Shown here piece by piece: positions 2,245 through 32,954 of a stretch of DNA of 64,000 nt (positions are counted from its first letter, which is position 1; every line of letters begins with the position of its first letter). The position numbers were made by a program, and so were the translations under genes. The notes under the pieces were generated by a model. It did no database searches. It worked only from the letters and a program-made list of their open reading frames with translations, and was not told the origin of the DNA. The DNA is taken from the NCBI GenBank assembly GCA_001784115.1, contig MFPD01000011.1:28869-92868 (forward strand). Reading direction: 5' to 3'. Origin of the DNA: Candidatus Levybacteria bacterium RIFCSPLOWO2_02_FULL_37_18. Lineage in GTDB: Bacteria > Patescibacteriota > Microgenomatia > Levybacterales > UBA12049.

Positions 2245-5200
2245 TTATTCTCTTGCTTCTTTATCTACATTTGCCTCCGGAACTATACTTGTTTTCAAAT
2301 CCCCCGTTGCAACTTCACTTGCGCCTAATTGCCTTTGCATTTCATTTGCTTCTTGTTTGACTTTTTCTTCTTGACTTGCAGACATAATCCCTTCTGTTGG
2401 TTCCGCCTCAACTATTATGGCGGGTTTTATGGGTACGACATTGAGTCCCAAAGCCTGAAGTTCTTTAATCAAAACTTTAAACGATTCAGGAACTTTTGGT
2501 GTTGGGATATCAGTCCCTTTTACAATAGCCTCAAATGCTTTTGCTCTTCCAACGACATCATCTGATTTAATGGTTAACATTTCTTGTAGTGTATAGGCAG
2601 CTCTATGAGCTTCAAGTGCCCATACTTCCATTTCTCCCAGTCTTTGTCCTCCCATTTGTGCTTTTCCACCGAGCGGTTGCTGGGTAACTAAAGAATAAGG
2701 TCCTGTAGAACGGGCATGAGTTTTATCCTCAACCATATGAATAAGTTTCATCATATATTCGATGCCCACCATAACTGGGTTTTTATACGCTTCGCCTGTT
2801 CTTCCGTCATAAAGCGTAACCTTTCCGTTTACAGGAAGACCAGCTTTTTTAAGCACAGATACGATTTTATCTTCTTTTATGTCTTCGAATACAGGAACTG
2901 CAAGCTTTGTAGAGAGTTTTTTTGCTGCCCAACCCAAATGAGCTTCTAAAAGCTGACCTAAATTCATACGAGCCAAAACCGAAATCGGAGAAATTACGAT
3001 ATCAACCGGCGTACCGTCCTCTAAACACGGCATATCTGCAACGGGTAAAATCTTTGAAATAACTCCTTTGTTGCCGTGTCTTCCTGCCAGCTTATCTCCT
3101 ACAACTACGTGTCTAAATTGGGCTACCTCAACGATAATTTTTCGAATCGCCCCCGGCTCTAATTCGTCACCCTTTTTCCTGTCCAATATCGAAACACTGA
3201 TTACTGTCCCTCTTTCCCCATGAGGTATGCGCAACGATGTGTCTCTGACTTCTCTTGCTTGCTCTCCAAAGATTGCCCGAAGCAGTCTTTCTTCTGCGGT
3301 TAGTTCTGTTTCTCCTTTTGGAGCGATTTTACCCACTAGTATATCTCCCGGTCCCACTTCGCTTCCAATAACCACAATTCCATCTTCGTCTAAATTTGCC
3401 AAATCTTCATCAGAAACATTAGGAATATCCCTTGTGGTTTCTTCCGGACCAAGTTTTGTTTCTACAACAGAAGCTTCGTATTTCTCGATATGAATTGACG
3501 ACAACACATCTTCTTTAACGAGCCTGTCGGAAATAACAATTGCATCTTCATACCCCAAGCCGTCTAAAGAAGCATACGCTATTAAAAGATTCTGTCCCAA
3601 AGCCAACTCTCCATTTTCAGACGCGGGACCATCAATTAATACATCTCCTTTTCTAACTCTTTGCCCACGAAGTACGTATAGTTTTTGCGTATACGAGGTT
3701 GCTTGTGAAGTTCGTTTGAATGATTCAATGGTATAGGTCACTTTTTGACCTTTGTCACCTTGGAATACTAAGCTACTTGCGTCAGCATGAAGCACTCTTC
3801 CATCGAATGGGGCTCTGACAACCCGATTCATAACCCCTGAGACTTCCCTTTCCATATTTGTCCCAACCACAGGGCTCTCGGGTTTAACAAGCGGTACTGC
3901 CTGACACTGCATATGGGTTCCCATAAGCGCCCTGTTTGCTTCGTCGTGATTAATAAATGGAATTAAAGAAGCCGCTGTCCCAAATACCTGTCTTGGGATG
4001 ACGTCAATGTATTCTATTTTCTCTTTGTCAACTTCTATAAATTCTCCTCTAAATCGAACAGGCACTCTCTCCGCTTCGATGGTATCTTTATCAGACAAAA
4101 CCAACGCGGCAGTTATATAATGCTCTGCTTCATCATCAGCGTCTAGGTATACAATTTCATCGGTTGCTTTTATGGTTATTTTTCCTCCTCGTTTTTCTTT
4201 TACTACTTTTCTGTACGGCGCTTCTAAAAATCCACAATCATTGACTCGTGTGTATAACGCCATGTATGTAACAAGACCAATATTAGGTCCCTCAGGAGAC
4301 CTGATTGGGCAAATTCGGGAATACTGAGAACTGTTTATATCCCGAATTGAAAATGCTGCTCGTTCTCTTGAGATTCCACCGGTTCCCATAACTGTCAGTC
4401 TGTTTAAATTATCAATTTCAGAAAGCGGATTAGTCTGATCTAAAATAGTTGATAATTGTGATGTTCTAAAAAACTCATTAATAGAAGCCATAATTGGTCG
4501 GGCATTAATCAAACTAGCAACAGATACCGGAATATCCGGCTGGATAAGACTCATACGCTCTTTAATACTTCGCTCAAGTCGTAAAACTCCTACTCGAAAT
4601 GCCGTGGTTGCAACCAATTCTCCTACTCTTCTGACTCGTCTATTGGCCAAACTGTCGATATCATCAACCGTACCCTGTCCGCTCTTCAAAAGAATTAAAT
4701 ACCCAATGGTTGCAATAATATCTTCTATTGCAAGAACTCTTTCCTCTGTGGTTCTAAAGCCTGGTACATTTGATAACTTTTTGTTTATTTTGTATCTACC
4801 AACAGTTCCTAAGTCGTATCTCCTGTTATTAAAAAATAGGCTAATAAAGTTTTCTCTTACTTTATCTAACACAACAGGCTCACCTGGGTGCATTTTTTTA
4901 AAGATTTCGATTGTGGCTTCTGTTTCGTTTTGGGTTTCGTCTTTCTCAAGGGTATTTTCGATAAACGATTTTTCACCATTTTCTATACTTGAATCTTTAA
5001 GTGCTGCAAATTTATCCAAAATGTTTTGATTTGAAGAAAGACCTAATGCTCTTAAAAAGGTAGTTACGGGAAATTTCCTTCGCCTATCGATTTTTACGCT
5101 AATCGTATCGTGCCGGGTTGTAGAAAATTCTAACCACGAACCATGAATAGGCCTAATTTCTGCTATATATAAAGGTTTTCCTGTAACCGGATCTGGCACA

Positions 5201-5643
5201 GAAGTATAAAAAACGCCCGGAGAACGGACGAGTTGGTTAACAACAGCTCTTTCAATACCATTAATAATAAAAGTACCCCTATCGGTCATTTGCGGGATAT
5301 CTCCTAAAAACACTTCTGCTGTGTGATTTTTGCCTGTTTTTTTATTAGTTAGAATTGCTTTTACGTATAAAGGAGCATCAAAAGTCAAGCCTTTTGCTAA
5401 AGCTGTAACAGGATCATTTGTGGTTTTCCCCAAACGGTAATTAGTTAAAGACAATGTCCAATTTTTTTCTGTGAAATCGTCAATTGGAGAAATTTCATGT
5501 AAAATCTCTCCGATTGCTTTTTCTTCAAACCACTTATAAGACTGTTTTTGTGCGGCAAGTAAATCCAATTGAGGCTCAATAGAGTATTTTCTTCCCCAAT
5601 TCTCTCGTACTATGTTGTTTGTTTTTGTATCTTTTTTAGCCAT
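2245..5643 (-). CDS. rpoB: DNA-directed RNA polymerase subunit beta
   Basis: 1132-aa ORF with conserved beta-subunit blocks throughout (e.g. GTHMQCQAVPL, NMEREVSGV, GDKLAGRHGNKGVISKI, MVGIEYMMKL). Conserved rpoB-rpoC adjacency. Confidence 0.97.
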   Translation of the reverse strand: MAKKDTKTNNIVRENWGRKYSIEPQLDLLAAQKQSYKWFEEKAIGEILHEISPIDDFTEKNWTLSLTNYRLGKTTNDPVTALAKGLTFDAPLYVKAILTNKKTGKNHTAEVFLGDIPQMTDRGTFIINGIERAVVNQLVRSPGVFYTSVPDPVTGKPLYIAEIRPIHGSWLEFSTTRHDTISVKIDRRRKFPVTTFLRALGLSSNQNILDKFAALKDSSIENGEKSFIENTLEKDETQNETEATIEIFKKMHPGEPVVLDKVRENFISLFFNNRRYDLGTVGRYKINKKLSNVPGFRTTEERVLAIEDIIATIGYLILLKSGQGTVDDIDSLANRRVRRVGELVATTAFRVGVLRLERSIKERMSLIQPDIPVSVASLINARPIMASINEFFRTSQLSTILDQTNPLSEIDNLNRLTVMGTGGISRERAAFSIRDINSSQYSRICPIRSPEGPNIGLVTYMALYTRVNDCGFLEAPYRKVVKEKRGGKITIKATDEIVYLDADDEAEHYITAALVLSDKDTIEAERVPVRFRGEFIEVDKEKIEYIDVIPRQVFGTAASLIPFINHDEANRALMGTHMQCQAVPLVKPESPVVGTNMEREVSGVMNRVVRAPFDGRVLHADASSLVFQGDKGQKVTYTIESFKRTSQATSYTQKLYVLRGQRVRKGDVLIDGPASENGELALGQNLLIAYASLDGLGYEDAIVISDRLVKEDVLSSIHIEKYEASVVETKLGPEETTRDIPNVSDEDLANLDEDGIVVIGSEVGPGDILVGKIAPKGETELTAEERLLRAIFGEQAREVRDTSLRIPHGERGTVISVSILDRKKGDELEPGAIRKIIVEVAQFRHVVVGDKLAGRHGNKGVISKILPVADMPCLEDGTPVDIVISPISVLARMNLGQLLEAHLGWAAKKLSTKLAVPVFEDIKEDKIVSVLKKAGLPVNGKVTLYDGRTGEAYKNPVMVGIEYMMKLIHMVEDKTHARSTGPYSLVTQQPLGGKAQMGGQRLGEMEVWALEAHRAAYTLQEMLTIKSDDVVGRAKAFEAIVKGTDIPTPKVPESFKVLIKELQALGLNVVPIKPAIIVEAEPTEGIMSASQEEKVKQEANEMQRQLGASEVATGDLKTSIVPEANVDKEARE

Positions 5644-5673
5644 TTGCTTTCTTATATTGCGGGCCGTTTACAA

Positions 5674-5702
5674 CAAAAAAAATAAGCAGTCCCACAGGAC
5701 TG
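5674..5702 (-). terminator. Hairpin (CAGUCC-ugug-GGACUG) followed by a U8 tract in the rpoB 5' leader; candidate attenuator/intrinsic terminator
   Basis: Minus-strand RNA reads agaugaCAGUCCugugGGACUGcuuauuuuuuuu. It lies 30-60 nt upstream of the rpoB ATG (5643). Confidence 0.4.
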
Positions 5703-5803
5703 TCATCTTTTAGAAAAGATAGAGTAAACTACTTATAACACACCTTGAACAGCGGTGTCAAGGCCTGAAAATATTGGTAACTGTTTACACTTCTGACACG
5801 ATT

Positions 5804-5918
5804 TTGTCATTCTGGAGGCTGAAAGCCGACTTGCCTGCCGGCAGGTAGGTAGAATCTCTCCCAAAGTTAGATGCTATCGCTACGCCGAGTCAGACTCGGC
5901 TGCGCTCCAGCATGACAA
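5804..5918. mobile_element. MITE-like palindromic element copy A (TIR attttgtcattctgg / ccagcatgacaattt)
   Basis: Terminal inverted repeat ttgtcattctggag...ctccagcatgacaa (13/14). Internal palindromes cctgccggcagg and gccgagtcagactcggc; the latter 15-mer is shared with copy B. Flanked by imperfect direct repeats aactgtttacac (5779-5790) and aactgtgaatagttacaca (5927-5945). Confidence 0.55.
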
Positions 5919-6105
5919 TTTTATTAGAACTGTGAATAGTTACACATTTGAAACTAACAAGTTGACATACCTAAGGATTTTTAATTATTGAACATTCTTT
6001 TCAAAAGAGATACCAGACGCGGTTAAATAGTTCTTCTAAATGAGACCGTAGTGGAATGGGTATTTTCAAATGGGGTTTTGTCGGTCCAACAAATCTGGTA
6101 TTTAC

Positions 6106-6474
6106 TTATTTCTGACAAAGTATGTCGAGTAAATCCATTTGCTCATGAGGAAACTCATGACTATACCCATATTTTCCAGAATCAGTGACTATATATTCAA
6201 CCGAATCATCAAGCATTAAACGAGTAAAATGAGCCAGTCTTCCATTTCCCCCACCAACTTCTAAAACTCGAATCGGTTTACCTGCTGATGCTCCTAATCC
6301 TTTCGCACGCAAATGTAAATATCGAGAAAATGCGTCAATAAACTCAACGGTTAATAGTTCGTAAAAATTCTTTCTACTCTTAGAATCTATACCAAAACAA
6401 AATAAATCCCATTCATTTTTATCAGAGGGTACGCTATGGTCAAAAACAGACCATACTTCTACAAGAGTTGGCAA
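6106..6474 (-). pseudogene. Fragment of a class I SAM-dependent methyltransferase (N-terminal part incl. motif I; no ATG start, C-terminal half missing)
   Basis: Translation contains VLEVGGGNGRLAHF (motif I, GxGxG) and the post-I acidic residue (YIVTD). The frame ends ~25 aa later. The only ATG codons are near the 3' end, and a TAG lies 3 codons upstream of the TTG used by the ORF caller. Sits between MITE-like copies A and B. Confidence 0.5.
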
Positions 6475-6555
6475 ATGCTTCGGATCATTTAATCGCTATC
6501 TTATTGCTTCTTTACTATCTACTTCCTGCTTTTCTAAAACTTCTATCATATTAAG

Positions 6556-6675
6556 ACTGTGAGTGAGACATAATTCACATTGTCATGCTGGATTTATTTC
6601 ACCGAGTCAGACTCGGTTTCAGCATCTCCATTTTATAGATTCTGAATCAAGTTCAGAATGACATTTATGTCCCAG
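6556..6675. mobile_element. MITE-like palindromic element copy B with 10-bp flanking direct repeat (tcatattaag)
   Basis: Exact 10-bp direct repeat tcatattaag at 6546-6555 and 6676-6685. Terminal inverted repeat tgagacataa (6563-6572) / ttatgtccca (6664-6673) matches 9/10. Internal ttgtcatgctgg...cagaatgacat, ccgagtcagactcgg (identical to copy A) and attctgaatcaagttcagaat palindromes. Confidence 0.6.
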
Positions 6676-7208
6676 TCATATTAAGCGTATATCAAAAGTA
6701 AATTCTTGAAAGACGTTCTTCAGATTATTGGTAGTAGCTCAAATTGAAGTAGACATTATTTCACCTTAAACATTCTTATTTACGTATAATCTAGAAAAAA
6801 TACTTGCACTAATCTAAAAACAAAAAATAGGATTGACCATGCCAGAAAAAATAGAAAAATTAGTAATGGTATTGAGATTACTCATTTTACCATTTAGGCC
6901 ACTTCGCCCATTTCGGGGCTAAAATCAAACCTATTGGGTATACAAAGATCAGAAGTAAGACAGTAATAATAGATTTTGTATCCTCAGACATTCCATGATT
7001 TTTCTGCACCATAATTTCATTAAACTCTCTCTGTATTTGTCAAGAGTCAAAAAGATCAAAAAATTGTGATGTTTTTGTGATTAGAAATCCCGTGGAAAAT
7101 TAGAAAACAAATAGACGATTAAAATCTGAATTAGTTTCAATGTTTTGAAACATTTAAACTCATTCACCTTATCTATTTTACTCTTTTAGGAAAGCTTGTA
7201 AAGGGTGT

Positions 7209-7236
7209 TTGTCTGGAATTGTGTTCGTGCTATAAT
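7209..7236 (+). promoter_or_regulatory. Candidate sigma70-type promoter with extended -10 (TGcTATAAT) for alaS; start codon only ~7 nt downstream (possible leaderless mRNA)
   Basis: tgcTATAAT at 7228-7236, weak -35 ttgtct at 7209-7214 (16-bp spacer). alaS ATG at 7243. Confidence 0.4.
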
Positions 7237-8664: not shown

Positions 8665-11010
8665 ATGCCTATTTCCCTGCCTTTTTTCAAAAAAAAAGAA
8701 GAGCCTAAATACTTTTTAGTACTGCTTTTAAGAGGAGAAAAAGTCCACGCCGTACTCCTTGAGGAATTGGATGGGAAAATAAAAATACTCGAAAAATCCC
8801 AAGAGTTTTTTCAAAGTTCAATTGAAGACACAAGCGAAGAAGAATTATTAACAGTACTCGATAAAGCCATAACCAATGTAGAATCCACTCTTCCTCTTGA
8901 TTTCCCTACTCACCAAACTGTTTTTGGAGTAAAAGAAAACTGGGTGCTTGATGGGAAAATAAAAAAACAATACCTTAGCAAACTTAAAAGAATCTGCGAT
9001 GAATTAGGTCTTGCTCCAATTGGATTTTTAGTTATCCACGAAGCAATCGGACACTTGATGAAAAAAGAGGAAGGAGCACCTGTATCAACACTTCTAGTTG
9101 AAACCGGTAAGCGATCTTTAATTGTTTCTTTAATAAAAGCAGGAAGAATACTCGAAACAAAAAGCGCTCCGGTTAAAGGATCATATGCTTATACCGTAGA
9201 TACACTTTTAAAAGAATTTGCTACAAGCGAAATCTTGCCTTCTCGAATTACTATTTTTAACGACGACAAAAATGAAGATGTGCTAATGCAGGAATTTATC
9301 GGACACACATGGAGCAAAAGCCTTCCTTTCTTACATGTTCCTCAAATTACAACTCTTTCTAAAGATTTTGGCATATATGCAATTATAACTGCCTCTGCTC
9401 AGCAAATGGGCTTTGAGGTTTTAGAAACAGAAAATGAAGTTGAAATCCACCAACAACTAGAGACTGCAGAGGTTCGTAAACCAGCAATAGAATCAGAAAA
9501 AGAAACCGAAGGCTACCAACCACAAAATGAGGTTCAAAGTGTTAAGGAAAGCCAAAGTTTAGAACGAGAACAAGCAGAAGAGATAGAAAAAGGAGAACAA
9601 GCAGACAACAAAGAAGCTTTATATCCGAAAGAGGACGTATTCCAAAAATTCGGATTCTACAAAGACACAGACATCGCTAAAATTTCAAAAGAAGAAGTTA
9701 TTCCACCCGAACCAATGGCGTCTCAAGAAGAATCATCTGCGCATAAACAATCCTCAAATTCATTTTTATACACGGCCATTTTAATACTCTCAAAAGGAAA
9801 ACACGTTCTTTCTCATACATTTCATACGCATATTAAACATCGTATAAAAAAACCCCGTATTTCTTTTACCATGCCTAAGGGAAAATTTGTTTTGCCGGTA
9901 TTCATAACAATTCTTTTGTTACTAGGAGCAATCCTATTGTATATTTTTGGTATAAAAGCGATTGTCACCTTGACAATCGAACCAAAAGTTATTAAACAAA
10001 CCCAAGACGTCGTATTCGTAAATACGTCTTCTGACTTCTCTAAGAATACTATTGCTGCTGATTTTATTACCATATCAGAAGAAGGATCGGTATCCGAAAC
10101 TATTACAGGCAAAAGAGAAGTCGGAGAAAAAGCCAAAGGATCGGTTACGTTGTACAGCAGATTTACCCAAGATAAAACTCTTCCTTCTGACACAACAATT
10201 ACTTCTTCAAACGGATTGCAGTTTGTATTTGATGATGATACAAAGCTTGCTTCAGCTTCTGCTGGCGCAAGTGCCTCTCCATCAACTACAAAAGCAAATG
10301 TAACGGCAAAACAAATTGGCAAAGAATCTAATCTTCCTTCTGGAACTAAATTTTCTGTTTCATCGTTTGACATATCAGATATAGAGGCAAAAAACGACAG
10401 CGCATTCTCGGGCGGATCGAAAAAAGAAATAACCGCAGTATCAAAAAATGATTTACAAAAAGCTCTAGACGATTTACCAAAACAACTCGAACAAAAAGCC
10501 AAAGAGGACCTTTCTAAAAAGGTATCAAAAGACCAAGCTATTCTTCCTTCCTTTATCTCAACCACTGTGGGTAAAAAAGATTTTGATAAAAAAGAAGGAG
10601 AAGAAGCAAAATCTCTAATACTTAAAGGAACCGTAGACTATAAAGCAATCGCATACAAGAGAAGTGATTTTATTCTTTACGCAACACGTATTCTTTCAAA
10701 CAGCTTTCCCAGCAATTTTTCCATTTCTCAAAATAATCTAAAAGAAACCGTTAAAAGCATTAAGCAAAAAAATGGTTCGGAAGTTTTATCAACCCTGGAA
10801 ATCCAAGCGTTTTTAGTATCTAAATTAGATATGGAAAATATGAAAAAAAACATTACCGGAAAGACGTTTTTGCAAGCAGAGGATCTTTTATTAAAACTTC
10901 CGCAAGTTTCTGATGTAAGAATTATTCTTTCTCCCAATGTGTCATTTTTACCCAAGTTCCTGCCCCGAATTTCTAAGAATATAGAAATTCGGACGAAAGT
11001 AAATGACTAA
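8665..11010 (+). CDS. Actin-fold (FtsA/PilM-like ASKHA) N-terminal domain + E/Q-rich linker + single TM + large extracytoplasmic domain; hypothetical
   Basis: N-terminal ~270 aa show ASKHA-like blocks (KYFLVLLLRGEKVHAVL; CDELGLAPIGFLVIHEAIG; LLVETGKRSLIVSLIKAGRILE...GSYAYTVD) resembling FtsA phosphate-1/phosphate-2 (…VDIGGGTTDIAV…) but degenerate. TM segment FVLPVFITILLLLGAILLYIFGI at ~aa 415-440, followed by a ~340-aa Ser/Thr-rich domain. The next gene is a sortase. Confidence 0.45.
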   Translation: MPISLPFFKKKEEPKYFLVLLLRGEKVHAVLLEELDGKIKILEKSQEFFQSSIEDTSEEELLTVLDKAITNVESTLPLDFPTHQTVFGVKENWVLDGKIKKQYLSKLKRICDELGLAPIGFLVIHEAIGHLMKKEEGAPVSTLLVETGKRSLIVSLIKAGRILETKSAPVKGSYAYTVDTLLKEFATSEILPSRITIFNDDKNEDVLMQEFIGHTWSKSLPFLHVPQITTLSKDFGIYAIITASAQQMGFEVLETENEVEIHQQLETAEVRKPAIESEKETEGYQPQNEVQSVKESQSLEREQAEEIEKGEQADNKEALYPKEDVFQKFGFYKDTDIAKISKEEVIPPEPMASQEESSAHKQSSNSFLYTAILILSKGKHVLSHTFHTHIKHRIKKPRISFTMPKGKFVLPVFITILLLLGAILLYIFGIKAIVTLTIEPKVIKQTQDVVFVNTSSDFSKNTIAADFITISEEGSVSETITGKREVGEKAKGSVTLYSRFTQDKTLPSDTTITSSNGLQFVFDDDTKLASASAGASASPSTTKANVTAKQIGKESNLPSGTKFSVSSFDISDIEAKNDSAFSGGSKKEITAVSKNDLQKALDDLPKQLEQKAKEDLSKKVSKDQAILPSFISTTVGKKDFDKKEGEEAKSLILKGTVDYKAIAYKRSDFILYATRILSNSFPSNFSISQNNLKETVKSIKQKNGSEVLSTLEIQAFLVSKLDMENMKKNITGKTFLQAEDLLLKLPQVSDVRIILSPNVSFLPKFLPRISKNIEIRTKVND

Positions 11011-11704
11011 GCTTTACTATAAAAAATCTAACAAAAAAAATCTAAAGATTATAATCCGTATTGTTTCAATCGGAATATTTCTTGCCGGATTATATGTTCT
11101 TTCGTATGTATTCCTTCCTATATACTCATGGCATATATATTTTGCGCCAGTATTCGCTGCTCAAAATGTAAACTACCCAATTCCTAAATTATTACTTCTT
11201 ACTCCAACAAGTAATACGTCTATTGATACAAAATATCTTGACGCAAAAAATTGGTTTCCTACACTTTCCACGACAGATACTGCTCCAAAAATTTCATCCT
11301 ATACTCTCTCTATTCCAAAACTATCTATTAAAAATGCGCTTGTTTCTACAATTAACAATGATCTCTCAAAACACTTAGTCCATTACCAAGGAACCGCGCT
11401 TCCACCAGACAATGGAAACGCAGTTATTTTTGGTCATTCAACATTGCCGCAATTATTTAATCCAAAAGATTATACAACTATCTTTGCTAGAGCTTATACT
11501 CTTTCTAACTACGATAAAATTATTTTACAAATGCAAGGCATTACCTATACATATAGTATATATAACACGACTGTTGTTAATCCAACTGATACTTCTCCGT
11601 TTAACCAAGACTATGCTTTTAGTCACCTCACGCTTGTTACCTGTACACCTCCAGGAACAACATGGAAACGCTTAATCATAAAGGCAAAAATTGAGAATTT
11701 GTAA
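11003..11704 (+). CDS. Sortase family transpeptidase (membrane-anchored)
   Basis: N-terminal TM anchor. Conserved His (AVIFGHST), catalytic Cys in TLVTCTPPG and downstream Arg (WKRLII), in sortase order. Confidence 0.75.
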   Translation: MTKLYYKKSNKKNLKIIIRIVSIGIFLAGLYVLSYVFLPIYSWHIYFAPVFAAQNVNYPIPKLLLLTPTSNTSIDTKYLDAKNWFPTLSTTDTAPKISSYTLSIPKLSIKNALVSTINNDLSKHLVHYQGTALPPDNGNAVIFGHSTLPQLFNPKDYTTIFARAYTLSNYDKIILQMQGITYTYSIYNTTVVNPTDTSPFNQDYAFSHLTLVTCTPPGTTWKRLIIKAKIENL

Positions 11705-13104: not shown

Positions 13105-14048
13105 GGAAACTGGTAATACTTCTTTTTATTTTTGGAACATTTGTTCTCGGCGGTATCGCTTGGTGGAACAATGCGCTTTCTGCCGTTGACAAAAACAACA
13201 CATCAAAAAAAATTTTTGTTATATATAAAGGACAGGGTGTCAAGACAATTGCAAATAATTTAAAACGCGAAAGTTTTATCAAAGACCCAATTGTTTTTTT
13301 TATATTAGTTAAAAAATTAGGAATCGAAGGAAAAATTCAAGCCGGAGATTTTCGTCTTTCTCCTTCTCAGTCGGCAACTGATATTGCCCAAACCTTAACC
13401 CATGGGACACTCGATGTATGGATAACAATCCCCGAAGGACAAAGAGCAGGTGAAATCGCAGATATTTTAAAAGACAATATTTCTACTTTTGAACCCTCTT
13501 GGAAAATTGAATTAAGTCAGCACGAAGGATACTTATTTCCGGATACCTATTTAATTCCGAAAGATGCTTCTATTTCATTTATTATTTCTCATTTAAAAAA
13601 TAATTTTAATAATCAATATGCAAAAGTTCAAACTTCTGAGAATCAAAAAAAAATTGTCACCATCGCATCTCTTATTGAGCGAGAAGCTAAATTTAAAGAA
13701 GATAGACCCCTTGTTTCTTCTGTTATTCATAATAGGCAAAACCTGAGTATGCCGCTTCAAATCGACGCAACTATTCAGTATATGCTGGGTTATCAATATA
13801 ATGAACATAGATGGTGGAAAAAGAATTTAACAAAAGAAGATTTACAAATTGACTCTCCCTATAATACCTACATTCATCCGGGTCTTCCTCCAACCCCTAT
13901 TGCAAACCCAGGGCTTTCTGCATTACAAGCAGCGGCCCAACCTATAAACACAGATTACTTGTATTATATTTCTGATAAACAAGAACACAATCATTATGCA
14001 AAAACACTTGAAGATCACAATGCAAATATTAAGAAGTATGGACTGTAA
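13101..14048 (+). CDS. mltG: Endolytic murein transglycosylase MltG (YceG family)
   Basis: N-terminal TM, conserved SPYNTYIHPGLPPTPIANPG block and LIEREA motif. Confidence 0.85.
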   Translation: MRKLVILLFIFGTFVLGGIAWWNNALSAVDKNNTSKKIFVIYKGQGVKTIANNLKRESFIKDPIVFFILVKKLGIEGKIQAGDFRLSPSQSATDIAQTLTHGTLDVWITIPEGQRAGEIADILKDNISTFEPSWKIELSQHEGYLFPDTYLIPKDASISFIISHLKNNFNNQYAKVQTSENQKKIVTIASLIEREAKFKEDRPLVSSVIHNRQNLSMPLQIDATIQYMLGYQYNEHRWWKKNLTKEDLQIDSPYNTYIHPGLPPTPIANPGLSALQAAAQPINTDYLYYISDKQEHNHYAKTLEDHNANIKKYGL

Positions 14049-14125
14049 AAAACTGTCATTGCGAGGAACTTATGTTCCGAAGCAATCTCTAATTGAGACT
14101 GCTTCGCTCCGCTCGCAGTGACAAG
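14047..14125. terminator. Compound hairpin element (TGTCAT...ATGACA-bounded) between convergent mltG and ytxH-like genes; likely bidirectional terminator
   Basis: aaaactgtcattgcgag...ctcgcagtgacaagtttt outer inverted repeat with nested ggaacttatgttcc and gaagcaatctc/gagactgcttc stems. Sits exactly between the stop codons of the convergent genes. Confidence 0.5.
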
Positions 14126-14134
14126 TTTTAAACA

Positions 14135-14560
14135 TTAATTGATCCGTCTTTTAGGCACTCCGCGGAAGAATCGTTTGGTTTTTTTCTCAAAATTTTCAGT
14201 TACTTTTGCTGCTGTCTCTGCGACATCAGCAGCGTTTGACGCGGCTTTTGCTGCTGTTTGGGCTAATCCACTTACTTTAGAAAGACTTGTTGTGGTAATT
14301 TTTTCAATCGCCGATTCAACCTGCGGTATTGTTTCTTTTACTTTCGAACGAATAACTTGTGATGGTTTAACTTCATCCTCAAGTAAAAAATCCTCCAAGT
14401 CAGAAATTCCTTCGATGCCTTCTTCTGTTAATGTTTTTAACAACCGTTTGCCTTTTTTTGTGCCGAATAAAAATACTCCCACTCCTCCTAAAATAGCTCC
14501 CAATAAAAATCCATTGCCAAATGCGTTTGAATTATGATTGTCGTGATTATTATTACTCAT
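14135..14560 (-). CDS. YtxH-like membrane protein (general stress/DUF948-neighbour family)
   Basis: GFLLGAILGGVGVFLFGTKKGKRL N-terminal helix, then an A/K/E-rich coiled region typical of YtxH. Confidence 0.55.
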   Translation of the reverse strand: MSNNNHDNHNSNAFGNGFLLGAILGGVGVFLFGTKKGKRLLKTLTEEGIEGISDLEDFLLEDEVKPSQVIRSKVKETIPQVESAIEKITTTSLSKVSGLAQTAAKAASNAADVAETAAKVTENFEKKTKRFFRGVPKRRIN

Positions 14561-14831
14561 GTTTTGATTTACCTGCCTTTCTTTTAAAAAAACGCGCTAG
14601 TAAATTTCCTACTTTTACTCCTTCAGAAAGAGCTGAAAATGAAAATAAAGAAGATAAAGGGGAAGAAACTGTCTGGGAAATTACTCCGGCATCGTCTAAT
14701 ATTTTATTTGCTTTTTTTACTGTTCTTCGTAATTCCCGAAGTATTAAAAATACCTGAACACCTAAAATAGCCAAAAGGATTGTGAGTACTGAAATAACTA
14801 TCAAAAGTATAATCTGAGCAGCATCCGCCAT
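14553..14831 (-). CDS. DUF948-like small membrane protein
   Basis: N-terminal TM (IILLIVISVLTILLAILGVQVFLIL) followed by RELRRTVKKANKILDDAGVIS, typical of DUF948/YtxG-like proteins. Confidence 0.5.
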   Translation of the reverse strand: MADAAQIILLIVISVLTILLAILGVQVFLILRELRRTVKKANKILDDAGVISQTVSSPLSSLFSFSALSEGVKVGNLLARFFKRKAGKSKHE

Positions 14832-14916
14832 AGCAGTATTACACTAGCAAAAAATCCACCCCTCGTCAATCCGATCTATCTATAATTTTCCAGTACATCT
14901 TTACAGCTTTTTCTAT

Positions 14917-15981
14917 CTATTCAAGAGGTATGTATTCATTGGCTGAATGAATTACCTCCTTTACACCTGGTCCTAAAACAACTGCTTCGATTCCATGTTG
15001 AGCAAAAAATACTTGATCTGTTGACCCAAGAGAAGTTGTAATAGATAGTTTTGGAAAAAACTTTTTCATTTTCTTTACGACTTCATTGTTACTAGAAATA
15101 TATATTGGTTCAATTGGATTTTTTAGAAATGAGGTGATAATTTCTTCTCCTACTGTTTTTTTAAGTAACTCTAATAATTTTCCGTGAAGCTTCGGGGTTG
15201 TTCTTATATCAAGAGTTACAAAACAAGCGCTTGGAATTTTGTTAATTGATTCACCAGATGTATAAATACCGGTAATATTAAGACTTGGTTCTCCTAATAT
15301 ATAATCCTCAAATTCTATCTGCCAATTCTTAAACTCTTTTTTTATTTTTCCTAGTGTGGCTAAAAATTTTTCAATAGCATTATCAGAAAAATCATGTTGT
15401 TTTGCTCCGTGACCAGCTTTTCCCAATGCTTGAATTTTGATAAACGCATTTCCTCTATGACCAATTTCTATAGAAGAAAGATTAGTCGGTTCTCCAACAA
15501 TCGCAAAAATTTTCTCATACTGTCATACTGTTTAAAGTATTTAGTTTTTTTAAACCACCTCAAAAAAATTTTGTGTTCCCAAACCATCAGTTTCTTCATT
15601 ACAAACAAATGTAAACCAAACATCAAGTGGAGAATTTTGTAAAGATTTTGCTAAAAGAAGCATTGCTGCGATTGCTCCTTTATTATCACTTGCTCCCAAT
15701 CCATACAGTTTTCCATCAAAAATTTTTCTTTCTAACGAACTACCTTCTATAGTATCCATGTGCGCATTAAAAATAATGCACTTGTTTTTATTTTTTCCTT
15801 TGAAACAAATTACTACATTTCCATGTAGAAGTTTTGCTGGAATATTATTTTGTTTACAAAAATTCAAAATAAAATTTGTGAGCTTTTTTTCCTGTCCAGA
15901 AGGAGAATAGATTTGAACCAGATTCTGTAAAAGTTTTTCAGGATTCATAGTGTTCTCCTTTTCCGCCAAAAAGTTTTTCAC
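14917..15981 (-). pseudogene. M20 family metallopeptidase (ArgE/DapE-like acetylornithine deacetylase-type) interrupted by four clustered in-frame stop codons
   Basis: N-part (15550-15981) has M20 catalytic motifs (NAHMDTIEG, GASDNKGAIAAM, CNEETDGLG). C-part resumes in the SAME frame with ...QYEKIFAIVGEPTNLSSIEIGHRGNAFIKIQALGKAGHGA. Between them lie TAA (15550-52), TAA (15541-43), TAA (15532-34), TGA (15523-25), with an exact 8-bp tandem duplication catactgt|catactgt at 15516-15531. Confidence 0.7.
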
Positions 15982-16191
15982 TTTCTTTTTTTGTTTTCAA
16001 TTTTGCATCAGTTATTCTTCTAATGTTAAAGTGCGTCCAATCGCTATATTTTTTTACGAGGATTTTTTTGAACGATTTCTTGTTTGAAAAGCATTAGTAT
16101 ATGAACCTTCGTTACCCATAAATCATACAAAACCAATTTCTGGTCTAATTCTTTTTGCTTTTCCGAAATAATAAAATGATCCGTGTTCATA

Positions 16192-16969
16192 CTATTTTTT
16201 TTGCATTAAATATAACAGTATTGCCATTTGTGCCCACATCCTATTTTCTGCCTGATCTAAGACAATTGAATTCTTACTATCCAAAACTTCATCAGTAACT
16301 TCAACATTTCTTCTTACTGGCAAACAGTGCATAAAATATGCATTATTCGTTAGTTTCATTTTTTTAGAATCAACAATCCAATTTTTTAATCCTTCTCTGA
16401 TTTTTTTCTCTCTTTCCCAATTTCCGTAATAAGACAAAGCTCCCCAACTTTTAGCACATACCACCTCTGCATCTTTAAAACTTTCTTCCATATTATTTGA
16501 AAATGACAATCTTCCTTCTGCTTCTTGTGATCTTTTTTTCATTGTTTTAACAGTTTCCTCATCTAATTCCCACCCTTTAGGATAAGTAACTGTTACGTCC
16601 ATCCCTAAATCACATGCAGATAAAATTTGAGAATTCGGTGTTGCAATCGGTAATGCTTTCGGATGATAAACCCATGTAAGCACACATTTTTTATTTTTTT
16701 GCATTACCAAGTTTTTCTTTAATTGTCATAGCATCACCCAATCCTTGACATGGATGAAACACGTTAGACTCCATATTAATTACTGGAACTGAGGAATATT
16801 TCATGAATGATTTTACAACAGTATCTTTTTTTAATTCTTCCCAAGCTTTAACATTCACACTCTCAGTTGAACTTGTAATTAATTCGCTTGATCTTATTGC
16901 CAATCCATCACAGTATCTAGATAAAACACCAGATGCTTCTTTTACATGCTCAATGGTATTCTTATTCAT
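16192..16969 (-). pseudogene. argF: Ornithine carbamoyltransferase remnant (N-terminal ~80 aa missing, internal frameshift near 16691-16710)
   Basis: Two overlapping ORFs: 16691-16969 (...SRYCDGLAIRS...VPVINMES...HPCQGLGD) and 16192-16710 (...HCLPVRRNVEVTDEV...). Upstream in-frame sequence (16970-17040) hits a TAA and is not OTC-like. The STRTR carbamoyl-phosphate-binding region is absent. Confidence 0.7.
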
Positions 16970-17009
16970 AGCTACGCCGTCATTAAATTCAAAAGTATAA
17001 CTACCATCC

Positions 17010-17371
17010 CAGGCATTGAGCCAATGATTGCATCTGCAATTTTAGGAGAGATTGGGGACATTAAAAGATTTCCCAATGTTCCATCTCTAATTGCTTATGC
17101 AGGACTGGACCCCACTACCTTTGAATCGGGAAGCAGCATCACAAAACACAGGAAGCTTTCTAAGAAAGGCTCTAAGTATTTAAGAACTGCACTATGGCAG
17201 GGTACTGTTTACTCTTTGGTACATAATCCCAACTTAAAAGCATTCTATGACAAGAAGCTCTCTGAGGGAAAACCAAAACAAGTAGCTTTAGGTGCTGTGA
17301 CCAACAAACTTACCAGGATTATTTATGGCATCCTAAGATCTGGTCAAGATTATCAACTAGATTTTAGTTAG
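17010..17371 (+). mobile_element. IS110-family transposase C-terminal fragment (Transposase_20 domain only)
   Basis: IPGIEPMIASAILGEIGDIKRFPNVPSLIAYAGLDPTTFESGSS...GSKYLRTALWQGTVYSLVHNPNLKAFYDKKLSEGKPKQVALGAVTNKLTRIIYGIL is the IS110-family C-terminal signature. No N-terminal DEDD domain upstream (that space is occupied by the argF remnant). Confidence 0.75.
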
Positions 17372-17542
17372 ATCCAATATCTTGTTAAAGTGCTAAATCT
17401 TTACTCCTTAAATTGGAGTAAATTGTTAGTGTCTTTTTTAGTACTCATACTGCTATCCATTTTTGATACTTGACATTTTATAGCTAGTCTTTGAACCACT
17501 ATTCTAGTTCAAGAGTGTAACCGATGTATCTCATCTTCTGCA

Positions 17543-17598
17543 TGTCATTCAAACTCGATTCAGAATTTCTAAGATCCTGAAATAAACTCAGGATGACA
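17543..17598. repeat. TGTCAT...ATGACA-bounded hairpin element (copy E)
   Basis: tgtcattcaaactcgattcagaatttctaagATCCTGAaataaacTCAGGATgaca. Same terminal motif and TTCAGAAT content as elements A-D. Confidence 0.4.
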
Positions 17599-17606
17599 AG
17601 AAGTAT

Positions 17607-18239
17607 TTACTTTACCTCCACGTGTCTCTCGATTTTTGTTTCTTTGCCGAATCGATTTACAGCCCGAATTACGATTATTGACTTACCTAAGAATACGTCA
17701 ACTGTTTTTTTAAACATTCCCTTTTCTTCCAAAAATACAGCATTATTATTAATATACACTGTTACATTGGAATCTGTTTTGCCAATAATTTGCACAGATG
17801 AACCGTTAAGCACTACTCCTTCTTTTGGACTTGTTACTTCAAGCGGTGGAGCTAAAAATGCGTACCGATTTTGATAAAAAATATAAGTTACCAACAATAG
17901 TAACAATATAACAATAGTAACAATTGTCCGACTTAACCTTGTTCTATGAATAGAAAAATCCTGTCTTCCTACAAGACCTTCAGGTAAAACTCTATATATT
18001 TTTTCTTCATCAAATTCCCTTCTAAAAAGAGCCATGGTTTCTTTTTCCGGAAGTCCAAGATATTCAATATAATTACGAACAAATCCCTGGGCGTATGCTC
18101 GTGACGGAAGTTTGTTATATTCCCCTTTTTCTATTGCGGAAAGAAATTGAGGTTTAATTTTTATTGCCTTTGATACATCTTCCAAGGTTAAACCTTTTTT
18201 ACTGCGTGCGTCAAAAAGAATCTGACCAACATGAATCAT
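17607..18239 (-). CDS. rodZ: RodZ-like protein (XRE-type HTH + TM + periplasmic domain)
   Basis: HTH (GQILFDARSKKGLTLEDVSKAIKIKPQFLSAIEKGEY), single TM (IVTIVILLLLLVTYIF) and C-terminal beta-rich domain. Start likely at MIHVG (complement of 18237-18239). Confidence 0.6.
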   Translation of the reverse strand: MIHVGQILFDARSKKGLTLEDVSKAIKIKPQFLSAIEKGEYNKLPSRAYAQGFVRNYIEYLGLPEKETMALFRREFDEEKIYRVLPEGLVGRQDFSIHRTRLSRTIVTIVILLLLLVTYIFYQNRYAFLAPPLEVTSPKEGVVLNGSSVQIIGKTDSNVTVYINNNAVFLEEKGMFKKTVDVFLGKSIIVIRAVNRFGKETKIERHVEVK

Positions 18240-18357
18240 AAATTCAAAAATCAAAAGGCAAAATTTCAATTCAAAATGCAAAAGTAAAGATTGTTTAGAA
18301 CTGGATTTTGACTTTTTACTTTCACTTCTGAATTTTGACCTTTGACTTTTGACTTAA

Positions 18358-20505
18358 TTATTGTTCTTGTCCGTGCAAGCTATTGAGGAACTCCTGTGCA
18401 TTTTGGACAAGTACGTCTCTTGGCTTGGCCCCTTCTCCAGGGCCGACAATTCCAATTTCTTCTAACTGATCAAGTATCCGAGCAGCCCGAGAATACCCGA
18501 CAGATAATCTTCTTTGTAAAAGCGAAGCCGACGCTCTATCGTGTTGGCATACTGTCCGAATTGCTTCTTCAAATAACGGATCTCTTCCGTCAGGTGAACC
18601 TCCACCTGTGTGTCCGTTGCCTTTTTTAAGAGGCAATTGTTGCGCTGTAACTTCTTCTGTATATTCAACCGGAATTCCTTTTGATTTTAAGAAATCAACT
18701 AATTTTTTAACTTCTTTTTCCGAAACATACGTACCTTGAATACGCGTTGGTTTGGCTTGATCTGGAGGGACATATAACATATCTCCTCTTCCTAATAATT
18801 TCTCAGCCCCAGGGCCGTCGATTATTACCCTGGAATCAATCATCGAGGAAACGTTAAATGCGATTCTGCAAGGTATATTTGCTTTAATAAGTCCTGTGAT
18901 AATATTAACAGACGGCCTTTGGGTTGCAATTACCAAATGAATTCCGGTTGCCCTGGCCATTTGAGCAAGACGGGCAATAGAATCTTCAACATCAACTGGA
19001 GCAAACATCATAAGATCCGCAAGTTCATCAATGACAATCACAATATAGGGAAGTGCCTGAAATCCGGATAATTCATTGTATCCGTCGATGTTTTTTACTC
19101 CTCTTTCTGCAAATAATTTATACCTTCTGTCCATTTCGCCCATCGCCCATTTTAATGCAGATAAGATTTTTTCCGGTTCTACAATTACCGGAGTAAGTAA
19201 ATGCGGAATACCATTGTATGCTGTAAACTCAACTCGCTTTGGATCAACAAGAATTAACTTTAACTCAGCAGGAGACGCACGAAATAAAAGCGTGCAGATA
19301 AAAGAATTAATTAAAACTGATTTTCCAGATCCTGTGGTACCGGCAACTAACACATGAGGCATTTTGGCAATGTCCGCAACAACTGAATTTCCCGACACGT
19401 CAAGACCTAATGCAGCCGTTAATTTTGATTTACTCCTCTGCATGGAAGAAGAAACAAGAATTGTCTTTAATGTGACAATTTCAAGCGATTTATTCGGAAT
19501 TTCTATACCAACTAAATTTCTTCCGGGAATCGGCGCTTCGATTCTGATTTGTCCGGTTGGAGCTTCCGTTGCCAAAGCCAAATCGTTTGATAATGCAGTA
19601 ATTTTAGAAACCTTTGTGCCCAAAGCAATTTCCAAAGCATACTGGGTAACAGCAGGACCTAGGTTTACTTCAGAAACCCGGGCGTCAACGCCAAAGCTCT
19701 GTAGAGTTTTCTCTATAACTGCAGCGACTTTTTTAATATCTCCCCTGTCTGCTTTTTGATTTGAAGCATCAGACAAAAGAGATAAAGCCGGATATTCCCA
19801 AATTCCTCCACTTGTTAATTCTCCAACAGTATTGGTTACTAATTTTTCGGACAAAAGCTCTGGTTCTTTTTTTACGTGCTGAATTTTTATATTGGCAGCC
19901 GGAATCACAGCTACATCTTTTATCCCTCCTCCTTTTATTGCGATTGGTTTATTTCTGACAATAAGTTGTTTTTTTGTTTTGAAAAGTGAGTTAATAAGAT
20001 TTTTTGGATAGAATCGTAAAATATTTTTAATTGTAAAAGAAACACCTTGCGTTAACTCATCTAGTGTTGTATCAAACAATACCACTAATCCCACAAATAC
20101 TCCTATCAAAAACACAAGCATGCTCCCTAATTTGGTAATCATTTCCGCAAATGTTCTAAATAACATTTCGCCGACTCTTCCACCCTGTGTAAGACCAACA
20201 AGAGAAGTAAAAAACAAGACAAACCCAAGCGCTACATTAGGTTTTGAAATAAATAGTTTTAGTCGTAAAAATAAAAAACCAAACAGAATTATTACAAAGG
20301 GAAATAATATTGCGGAAAACCCAAACATTTCTTGGAGTTTTGTATTTAATGTCGTAAACGAACCGCCGCTTTCTCCAGGTGGAGTAAAAAATGTAAGAAG
20401 AAGTAAACCACCTGCTAAGATAAACCCTAAAGCAAAAAGAGTATAAATTGTCTCTTTTCGAAGTTTTAATTTTGGACCTCTCCGCCTATATCTTCTCTTG
20501 GGCAT
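18358..20505 (-). CDS. ftsK: DNA translocase FtsK/SpoIIIE
   Basis: N-terminal TM helices, then motor domain with Walker A (VAGTTGSGKSVLINS) and Walker B (IVIVIDELADLMM). Confidence 0.9.
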   Translation of the reverse strand: MPKRRYRRRGPKLKLRKETIYTLFALGFILAGGLLLLTFFTPPGESGGSFTTLNTKLQEMFGFSAILFPFVIILFGFLFLRLKLFISKPNVALGFVLFFTSLVGLTQGGRVGEMLFRTFAEMITKLGSMLVFLIGVFVGLVVLFDTTLDELTQGVSFTIKNILRFYPKNLINSLFKTKKQLIVRNKPIAIKGGGIKDVAVIPAANIKIQHVKKEPELLSEKLVTNTVGELTSGGIWEYPALSLLSDASNQKADRGDIKKVAAVIEKTLQSFGVDARVSEVNLGPAVTQYALEIALGTKVSKITALSNDLALATEAPTGQIRIEAPIPGRNLVGIEIPNKSLEIVTLKTILVSSSMQRSKSKLTAALGLDVSGNSVVADIAKMPHVLVAGTTGSGKSVLINSFICTLLFRASPAELKLILVDPKRVEFTAYNGIPHLLTPVIVEPEKILSALKWAMGEMDRRYKLFAERGVKNIDGYNELSGFQALPYIVIVIDELADLMMFAPVDVEDSIARLAQMARATGIHLVIATQRPSVNIITGLIKANIPCRIAFNVSSMIDSRVIIDGPGAEKLLGRGDMLYVPPDQAKPTRIQGTYVSEKEVKKLVDFLKSKGIPVEYTEEVTAQQLPLKKGNGHTGGGSPDGRDPLFEEAIRTVCQHDRASASLLQRRLSVGYSRAARILDQLEEIGIVGPGEGAKPRDVLVQNAQEFLNSLHGQEQ

Positions 20506-32861: not shown

Positions 32862-32954
32862 ACGTTAATGATTGTCATTCTAAACTAGTTTCAGAATCTA
32901 TTTTTAGTATAGGTTTTTTGTTAACAAATTACAACGAACTTGAACATGAAGAAT

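Follow-up and report, generated by a model that had tools for sequence, protein, structure and literature searches.

Deacylases of the ArgE/DapE type within the M20 family consist of a Peptidase_M20 domain carrying an inserted M20_dimer domain. An M20 gene placed after argF' and argH is the arrangement expected for the acyl-citrulline pathway, which is known from Xanthomonas and Bacteroides. Among disrupted genes, the pseudogenes that arise during genome reduction in bacteria, by homopolymer slippage and short tandem duplication, combine small indels and nonsense mutations with deletion of pathway neighbours, and transposon excision footprints are marked by a short exact direct duplication at the site of disruption. 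In metagenome-assembled genomes of CPR/Patescibacteria from groundwater, about 5-10% of genes have been called pseudogenes (PMC11188291).

The locus described here belongs to a 64-kb stretch of DNA from groundwater Candidatus Levybacteria (hereafter the window, meaning the whole stretch analysed). It shares the two-domain architecture with ArgE/DapE deacylases but differs from them in carrying two frameshifts and a nonsense codon. Its small indels, nonsense mutation and deleted pathway neighbours are also those of CPR genome-reduction pseudogenes, and, as in known bacterial pseudogenes, fixed lesions are accompanied by further decay that is polymorphic in the population, with no difference in kind. 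What sets the locus apart as a curiosity is that its two indels sum to +9, so that the two halves of the gene seem to be 'in frame'. It is very probably a fixed pseudogene of the ArgE/DapE family in a Candidatus Levybacteria population, killed by three small independent mutations. The features of the gene are as follows:

14866-15948, reverse strand: M20 (ArgE/DapE-type) deacylase pseudogene, from the homology-supported ATG to the original TGA
15562-15568, reverse strand: T7 homopolymer, lesion 1 (+1 T; ancestral T6); the frame shifts after GTQNF, and the orthologue L104 and alleles L105 and L106 have T6
15523-15552, reverse strand: four in-frame stops (TAA 15552-15550, TAA 15543-15541, TAA 15534-15532, TGA 15525-15523)
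15515-15530, reverse strand: lesion 2, exact 8-bp tandem duplication, +8 frameshift, with CAGTATGA twice on the coding strand
15156-15162, reverse strand: A7 homopolymer (coding strand), polymorphic, with A8 in L001, L084, L089, L090, L105 and L106
14917-14919, reverse strand: lesion 3, premature TAG in place of a K/Q/N codon; beyond it the conserved tail IEKAVKMYWKIIDRSD stays in frame up to TGA 14868-14866

Structure of the disrupted gene

The original prediction, made from the sequence alone, described four stop codons clustered within 30 nt between two halves that share a frame. Both observations hold: translation of the M20 frame from 15981 to 14914 gives, as reported there, CNEETDGLGTQNFFEVV-stop-KN-stop-IL-stop-TV-stop-QYEKIFAIVGEPT, with TAA, TAA, TAA and TGA between 15552 and 15523. 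When the 200 nt around the patch are read in all three frames, one of them runs open through it, ending in EHKIFLRWFKKTKYFKQYDSMRKFLRLLENRLIFLL and a stop; this alternative frame crosses the stop cluster as RWFKKTKYFKQY, which matches the homologue consensus WFKKSKxFxxY. The patch is thus not 'garbled', as had been proposed. Every base between the two indels is native coding sequence, leaving no scrambled or foreign bases to explain, and the stop cluster is what the native WFKKTKYFKQY codons give when they are read in a shifted frame between the +1 T and the +8 duplication.

The T7 run lies 40 nt upstream of the duplication, and in the orthologue of L104 the codons for N-F-L are AAT TTT TTG, i.e. 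T6. On the forward strand, the duplication reads as TCATACTG twice in succession at 15515-15530, with the periodicity reaching 15531; the catactgt repeat at 15516-15531 noted earlier is real and is the same repeat rotated by one base. Removal of one duplication copy yields KQYEKIFAIVGEPT, and dropping one T together with one repeat copy gives a single uninterrupted ORF containing EETDGLGTQNFLRWFKKTKYFKQYEKIFAIVGEPT. In the protein alignment, which comprised the repaired M20 sequence and 19 intact homologues at 41-64% identity from Candidatus Gottesmanbacteria and other Patescibacteria, the repaired linker GTQNFLRWFKKTKYFKQYEKIFAIVGEPT fits the consensus GTxxFLxWFKKSKxFxxYKxIAAIIGEPT of all 19 homologues, including the invariant F128 and Y141. 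The agreement extends to length as well as sequence: with 35 aa, the interval from EETDG to GEPT in the repaired gene equals that in L103, L104, L004 and L005, as against 38 codons in the raw frame. It is homology showing an insertion that makes the duplication a meaningful, real mutational lesion, because period-8 repeats alone are not rare; the window contains three exact period-8 tandem repeats, compared with 1.9 +/- 1.4 in first-order Markov simulations.

Because the +1 and +8 indels add up to +9, the downstream half returns to its original frame and the gene is three codons longer than its ancestor. This return is a coincidence and represents neither rescue nor suppression. That the +1 T might suppress the +8 duplication intragenically was considered and rejected, as the intervening segment contains four stops and the T6 allele has the duplication without the T insertion.

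The 3' end of the gene carries a third lesion. The original prediction had the gene end at 14917; the natural terminator is instead TGA 14868-14866, and TAG 14919-14917 is a fifth in-frame stop, a nonsense mutation situated 17 codons ahead of it. The C-terminus in the window reads NEYIPLE-stop-IEKAVKMYWKIIDRSD-stop, and the conserved tail IEKAVKMYWKII runs on in frame past the TAG. At the position of this stop, L104 has CAA and L004 has AAG; the L104 protein ends in NEYINTKQIEEAAQIYKKIIDFQN and the L004 protein in NEYVYVSKIKKVVGLYKKIL, and the tail beyond the premature TAG also aligns to PDB 3ct9. At the other end, homology backs the ATG at 15948-15946 as the start, the GTG at 15981 being a mechanical ORF start only, and a tblastn search with the L004 orthologue as query gives a match over 15948-14881.

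With five in-frame stops and indels of +1 and +8, no uninterrupted full-length frame exists, and the downstream ORF has its first usable start (TTG, 15426) past the E150 ligand (GEPT). The earlier conclusion that the gene is dead stands, given two frameshifts and a nonsense codon in comparison with intact orthologues at the syntenic locus. Three mutations inactivate it. One is the 8-bp tandem duplication (+8); we infer replication slippage or misalignment as its most likely origin, with flanking microhomology of 1 nt only. The others are the expansion of T6 to T7 (+1), which adds the second frameshift, and the point mutation that created the TAG. Homopolymer slippage is still going on in an already dead gene, and the loss of the M20 gene forms part of the decay of the whole arginine operon. 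The pseudogene model predicts that no peptides would be found across FLRWFKKTKYFKQYEKIF or the TAG position.

Family assignment and ancestral role

The repaired translation matches the Pfam models Peptidase_M20 (PF01546; 80.2 bits against a cutoff of 24.6, 2.6e-22) and M20_dimer (PF07687; 51.3 bits against a cutoff of 21, 1.3e-13). The earlier division into an N-terminal catalytic and a C-terminal dimerisation half was only roughly right: M20_dimer (residues 159-253 of the repaired protein) is an insert within the catalytic domain (residues 59-339). The repaired protein aligns end to end with intact homologues of 340-406 aa from Gottesmanbacteria and other Patescibacteria, with a top identity of 64%, and it also aligns end to end with the closest solved chain, PDB 3ct9_A, annotated as 'acetylornithine deacetylase' (E 2.5e-24). 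The invariant columns of the alignment include H63, D65, D88, E118, E119, E150, H331, F128 and Y141, and all are kept in the repaired protein; the first seven are what we take to be the metal and catalytic residues of M20 enzymes. Eleven residues present in most homologues (WKYPPxGKxAG) are missing from the repaired protein. Because the intact closest relative, P0001, has the same in-frame deletion, it is probably older and not itself inactivating.

Among NCBIfam models, the best match of the repaired protein is the subfamily model TIGR01910, which aligns end to end at 150.3 bits, below its cutoff of 217.6. Every equivalog model (acetylornithine, acetylcitrulline and succinyl-DAP deacylase) scored far under its cutoff, and the same was true of the intact L004 orthologue. 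Read from the operon context only, the ancestral role was probably that of an N-acetyl- (or N-succinyl-) citrulline deacylase in the acyl-citrulline route to arginine; the acyl group, assigned likewise from the gene neighbourhood only, may have been either acetyl or succinyl.

Decay of the surrounding arginine operon

The neighbouring features on the 5' side of the M20 gene are the following:

15950-16190, reverse strand: argH (argininosuccinate lyase) remnant, with codons 1-48 and then about the last 30 codons out of frame
16192-17005, reverse strand: argF' (N-acyl-ornithine carbamoyltransferase) remnant, with codons 1-81 missing and +1 A in the A-run at 16694-16700
16997-17371, forward strand: IS110-family transposase remnant, C-terminal Transposase_20 only (PF02371, 1.5e-24, residues 18-101 of the ORF at 16946-17371)

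Two relatives show what an intact locus looks like. In L004, a Gottesmanbacteria genome assembled into one 1.1-Mb contig, the gene order is argC, argD, argB, argF', argH, M20, hisG, hisD and hisC; its argF' product scores 379.7 bits against the N-acetylornithine carbamoyltransferase model NF003384 (cutoff 288), and its ArgH (487 aa) scores 364.8 bits against TIGR00838. L104, which represents the orthologous locus of a closer relative, contains an intact ArgH (489 aa), an M20 protein (368 aa), an amino-acid kinase gene, p91, p147, YceG and the thymidine-phosphorylase-like PYNP. In this comparison, L104 has an intact M20 gene, and the window has the same flanks around a broken one, with 63-70% identity for the flanking genes and 57% for M20. 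The kinase gene of L104 is missing from the window, where the M20 stop and the next gene are only 34 bp apart; the difference may reflect either a deletion in the window or an insertion in L104.

In the window, the pathway partners of the M20 gene have been degraded as well. A tblastn search with L004 ArgH recovers residues 1-48 only, at 16190-16047, and another frame of the remnant encodes KKYSDW followed by AKLKTKKESEKLF, similar to the way ArgH ends in L103 and L104; about 1.2 kb of the argH interior has been lost. The argF' remnant is split, with the Pfam domains OTCace_N and OTCace matching two separate ORFs and tblastn with L004 ArgF' placing residues 82-184 in one frame and residues 176-348 in another. 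Homology to argC, argD or argB was detected nowhere in the 64-kb window by tblastn. Because the truncated 5' end of argF' directly abuts the IS110 remnant, of which the C-terminal part alone is present, a deletion that ran from inside the IS110 element into the operon is suggested. All operon lesions are common to every contig examined, which places the death of the operon before the divergence of the sampled strains. Neither the premature TAG nor the degradation of the surrounding arginine operon was mentioned in the original prediction.

Allelic variation across assemblies

About 20 contigs were compared with the window base by base, drawn from NCBI bins (including contig MFOH01000016.1 of GCA_001782355.1), two JGI metagenomes, ENA (IDBA 'ANAN16' scaffolds and MEGAHIT k141 contigs) and Logan assemblies of four SRA runs, and representing many samples. 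For the N-terminal M20 fragment, the index of the assembly collection has entries in 39 blocks. Across 14101-17720 the contigs compared are 99.6-100% identical to the window, and every one of them carries the same 8-bp duplication and the same TAG. No allele lacking the duplication was present among the contigs compared, and its ancestral state is taken from outgroups at 57-64% protein identity.

The homopolymers, by comparison, segregate. An exact-sequence cluster look-up returned P0123 (159 aa), a variant of the N-terminal fragment ending in GTQNFLRWFKKTKYFKQYDSMRKFLRLLENRLIFLL, which is exactly the product predicted for T6 plus the duplication. Its contigs, L105 and L106 (ENA ERZ4903072 and ERZ4903055), match the window at more than 99.9% identity; they have T6 in place of T7 and keep the duplication. 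The A8 state at the second run is a further frameshift in the C-terminal half, which splits the 169-aa fragment into pieces of 105 and 50 aa. Three of the four possible combinations of T-run and A-run lengths were seen, and recurrent homopolymer mutation or recombination is thus needed. Since the duplication and the TAG occur in all haplotypes and T6/T7 and A7/A8 are polymorphic, the former two are the older lesions. The T6 allele shows that the duplication by itself already kills the gene and that the T insertion came later, on a gene that was already dead.

Searches elsewhere added little to this picture. An exact scan of a metagenome contig collection with a 28-mer located just upstream of the duplication gave 0 matches, the collection evidently being without this population. 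When the repaired protein was used to search for homologues, no intact allele close to identity came up (best 64%), a weak result given that the known fragments were not listed either. In a genome-contig collection, which is where L004 was found, the closest genome had 52% protein identity, and the species of the window apparently has no representative there.

Alternative explanations

The original prediction saw in the patch a resemblance to a transposon excision footprint or repair scar. On the footprint reading, a mobile element would have inserted with an 8-bp target-site duplication and then excised cleanly, leaving both copies behind. An exact 8-bp direct duplication with nothing between its copies is the formal expectation of a clean excision in which the target-site duplication is kept, and the IS110 remnant and a MITE-like element of 120 bp at 6556-6675 attest to past activity of mobile DNA in this genome. 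The apparently garbled bases behind the idea are, however, native coding sequence. Beyond the shared duplication, the locus differs from excision footprints in that it has neither residual element ends nor, in the window, a cognate element making 8-bp target duplications; no occupied allele occurs among the contigs compared, and the surrounding sequence is unaltered native coding DNA. The resemblance once drawn to the MITE-like element is not supported, since the 10-bp repeat flanking this only candidate, TCATATTAAG, has just TCATA in common with the duplicated unit. The proposed link to the IS110 remnant fares no better. The copy of TCATACTG near it (17445) is at chance frequency, the window containing four occurrences against 1.33 expected, two of which are the duplication itself; target duplications of this sort are not typical of IS110-family elements, which are not known for 8-bp ones. 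When the MITE-like 120-mer and the IS110 3' tail were searched by blastn-short, only partial matches of 12-29 bp appeared, none near 15.5 kb; a repeat-family search over the whole window (seed 14, minimum 40 bp) detected no multi-copy MITE or IS at that stringency, and an Rfam scan of 13900-18400 (E <= 0.1) returned nothing. In bacteria, cut-and-paste excision seldom reseals the donor with a clean duplication left behind. Short tandem duplications are frequent among spontaneous frameshifts. Excision is accordingly improbable; if it did occur, the footprint would document directly that a transposon can excise in Patescibacteria with resealing of the donor.

The remaining alternatives would leave the gene functional. 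If a homopolymer had been miscalled and a repeat mis-joined, the gene could be truly intact, and one lesion does lie in a homopolymer whose length, like that of the A-run, varies among assemblies (T6/T7 and A7/A8). Yet the duplication and the TAG are the same across samples and assemblers (IDBA, NCBI bins, JGI, MEGAHIT k141 and Logan), and the T6 allele is also broken by them. MEGAHIT contigs carry A7 or A8 according to the sample, so the homopolymer variation tracks strains rather than software, and the T6 contig L105 differs from the window at linked SNPs too. Because about 20 contigs share the lesions, across many samples and several assemblers, an artefact of assembly or sequencing is very improbable. 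Recoding, whether by programmed frameshifting or bypassing or through a variant code with TAA/TGA as sense codons, could appeal to the shared frame of the two halves, to the T-run as a potential slippery site and to the conserved active-site columns, all of which are still there. It would need two shifts (+1, then -1) in addition to read-through of the TAG, whereas the 19 aligned homologues all keep one frame, with no frameshift at these sites, and so do the genes compared codon by codon. Moreover, the frameshift sites vary within the population, where A8 adds yet another segregating frameshift, and the partners argF' and argH are destroyed, so that the enzyme would have no substrate. A census of the 33 ORFs of at least 250 aa in the window (table 11; 49.7 kb of 64 kb, 78%) found 14 ending in TAA, 10 in TGA and nine in TAG; all three stop codons thus terminate normal genes here, as the original prediction had stated for TAA and TGA when judging recoding unlikely. 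Recoding can therefore be regarded as extremely improbable, and expression through two ribosomal frameshifts plus TAG read-through has a practically negligible chance. Gene-60-style bypassing was also considered and rejected: from V-TAA, the only near-cognate landing codon, GTA, leads into a TGA, and a conserved segment would be skipped.

Implications

The disrupted M20 gene is an ordinary bacterial pseudogene in a decaying operon, of a kind already known, and the locus fits the abundance of pseudogenes published for groundwater CPR genomes (PMC11188291), with nothing new in kind. The value of the analysis is mainly practical, lying in a corrected interpretation and in the flagging of mis-annotated 'hypothetical proteins': in GenBank, four Levybacteria bins have the two M20 fragments entered as separate proteins under that name (OGH19030/OGH19029 and equivalents). 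A domain-based reconstruction would count an OTCase-family enzyme and an M20 deacylase among the functions of the genome, although the whole arginine module is dead. For the reading of sequences the locus serves as a warning: a stop cluster between two in-frame halves is the signature of two indels of compensating length and not of foreign or scrambled DNA. The locus further shows, on a small scale and at population resolution, how a CPR bacterium loses a pathway step by step: the older lesions are shared, one of the deletions stops at an IS remnant, and homopolymer indels are still segregating.

Deletions in the arg operon and at the adjacent M20 locus

15950-16190, argH (argininosuccinate lyase) remnant
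16192-17371, argF' (N-acyl-ornithine carbamoyltransferase) and IS110-family transposase remnants

The argH remnant consists of the first 48 codons followed, in another frame, by approximately the final 30, an interior segment of approximately 1.2 kb having been deleted relative to both L004, a Gottesmanbacteria contig with an intact arg operon, and L104, the orthologous locus of a closer relative. The argF' remnant lacks codons 1-81, is frameshifted by an additional A at window 16694-16700, and is joined head-on to an IS110-family transposase remnant of which only the C-terminal domain is present. This junction looks like the product of a deletion that started within the insertion sequence and reached into the arg operon, with the loss of argB, argD, and argC as well.

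On the other side of the M20 deacylase pseudogene, L104 carries an amino-acid kinase gene (2817-3599, 260 aa) between its M20 gene and the homologue of the flanking gene p91, whereas the corresponding site in the window comprises only 34 bp (14832-14865); either L104 has gained an insert here or the window lineage has undergone a further clean deletion. The M20 gene itself has an 11-residue in-frame deletion (WKYPPxGKxAG) at window 15726/15727 (codons 74/75), adjoining the HxD metal-binding motif. Its closest relative, the intact P0001 (on L103), shares this deletion; the remaining 18 homologues in the alignment do not.

Among the Rifle Levybacteria assemblies, single-nucleotide polymorphisms segregate at window 17371, 14268, 14223, and 15367-15368. 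The C/A variant at 17371 alters how long the ORF of the IS110 remnant appears to be (115 vs 149 aa), and the AA/TT variant at 15367-15368 corresponds to a K-to-I replacement in the C-terminal fragment of the dead M20 gene. Since its base at 14268 is not that of NCBI MFOH01000016.1, the window derives from a sibling assembly.

Other features of the window

6546-6685, MITE-like sequence (120 bp, hairpin-rich) with flanking repeats
8665-11010, 781-aa ORF whose sole Pfam match, to Baseplate_J, is weak
14045-14140, very stable branched hairpin

The MITE-like sequence, located in a 1.5-kb stretch (5643-7219) with a single ORF of at least 120 aa, is bounded on both sides by the 10-bp direct repeat TCATATTAAG (2 matches observed, 0.26 expected); elsewhere in the window it has only short partial matches, at 32873-32901 (29 bp, 90%) and 5885-5919. 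The 781-aa ORF adjoins a sortase gene (11003-11704). The hairpin (MFE -40.7 kcal/mol; z = -9.2 relative to shuffled sequences) separates the convergent YceG gene and a 141-aa gene. It probably represents either a REP-like palindromic element or a bidirectional terminator.
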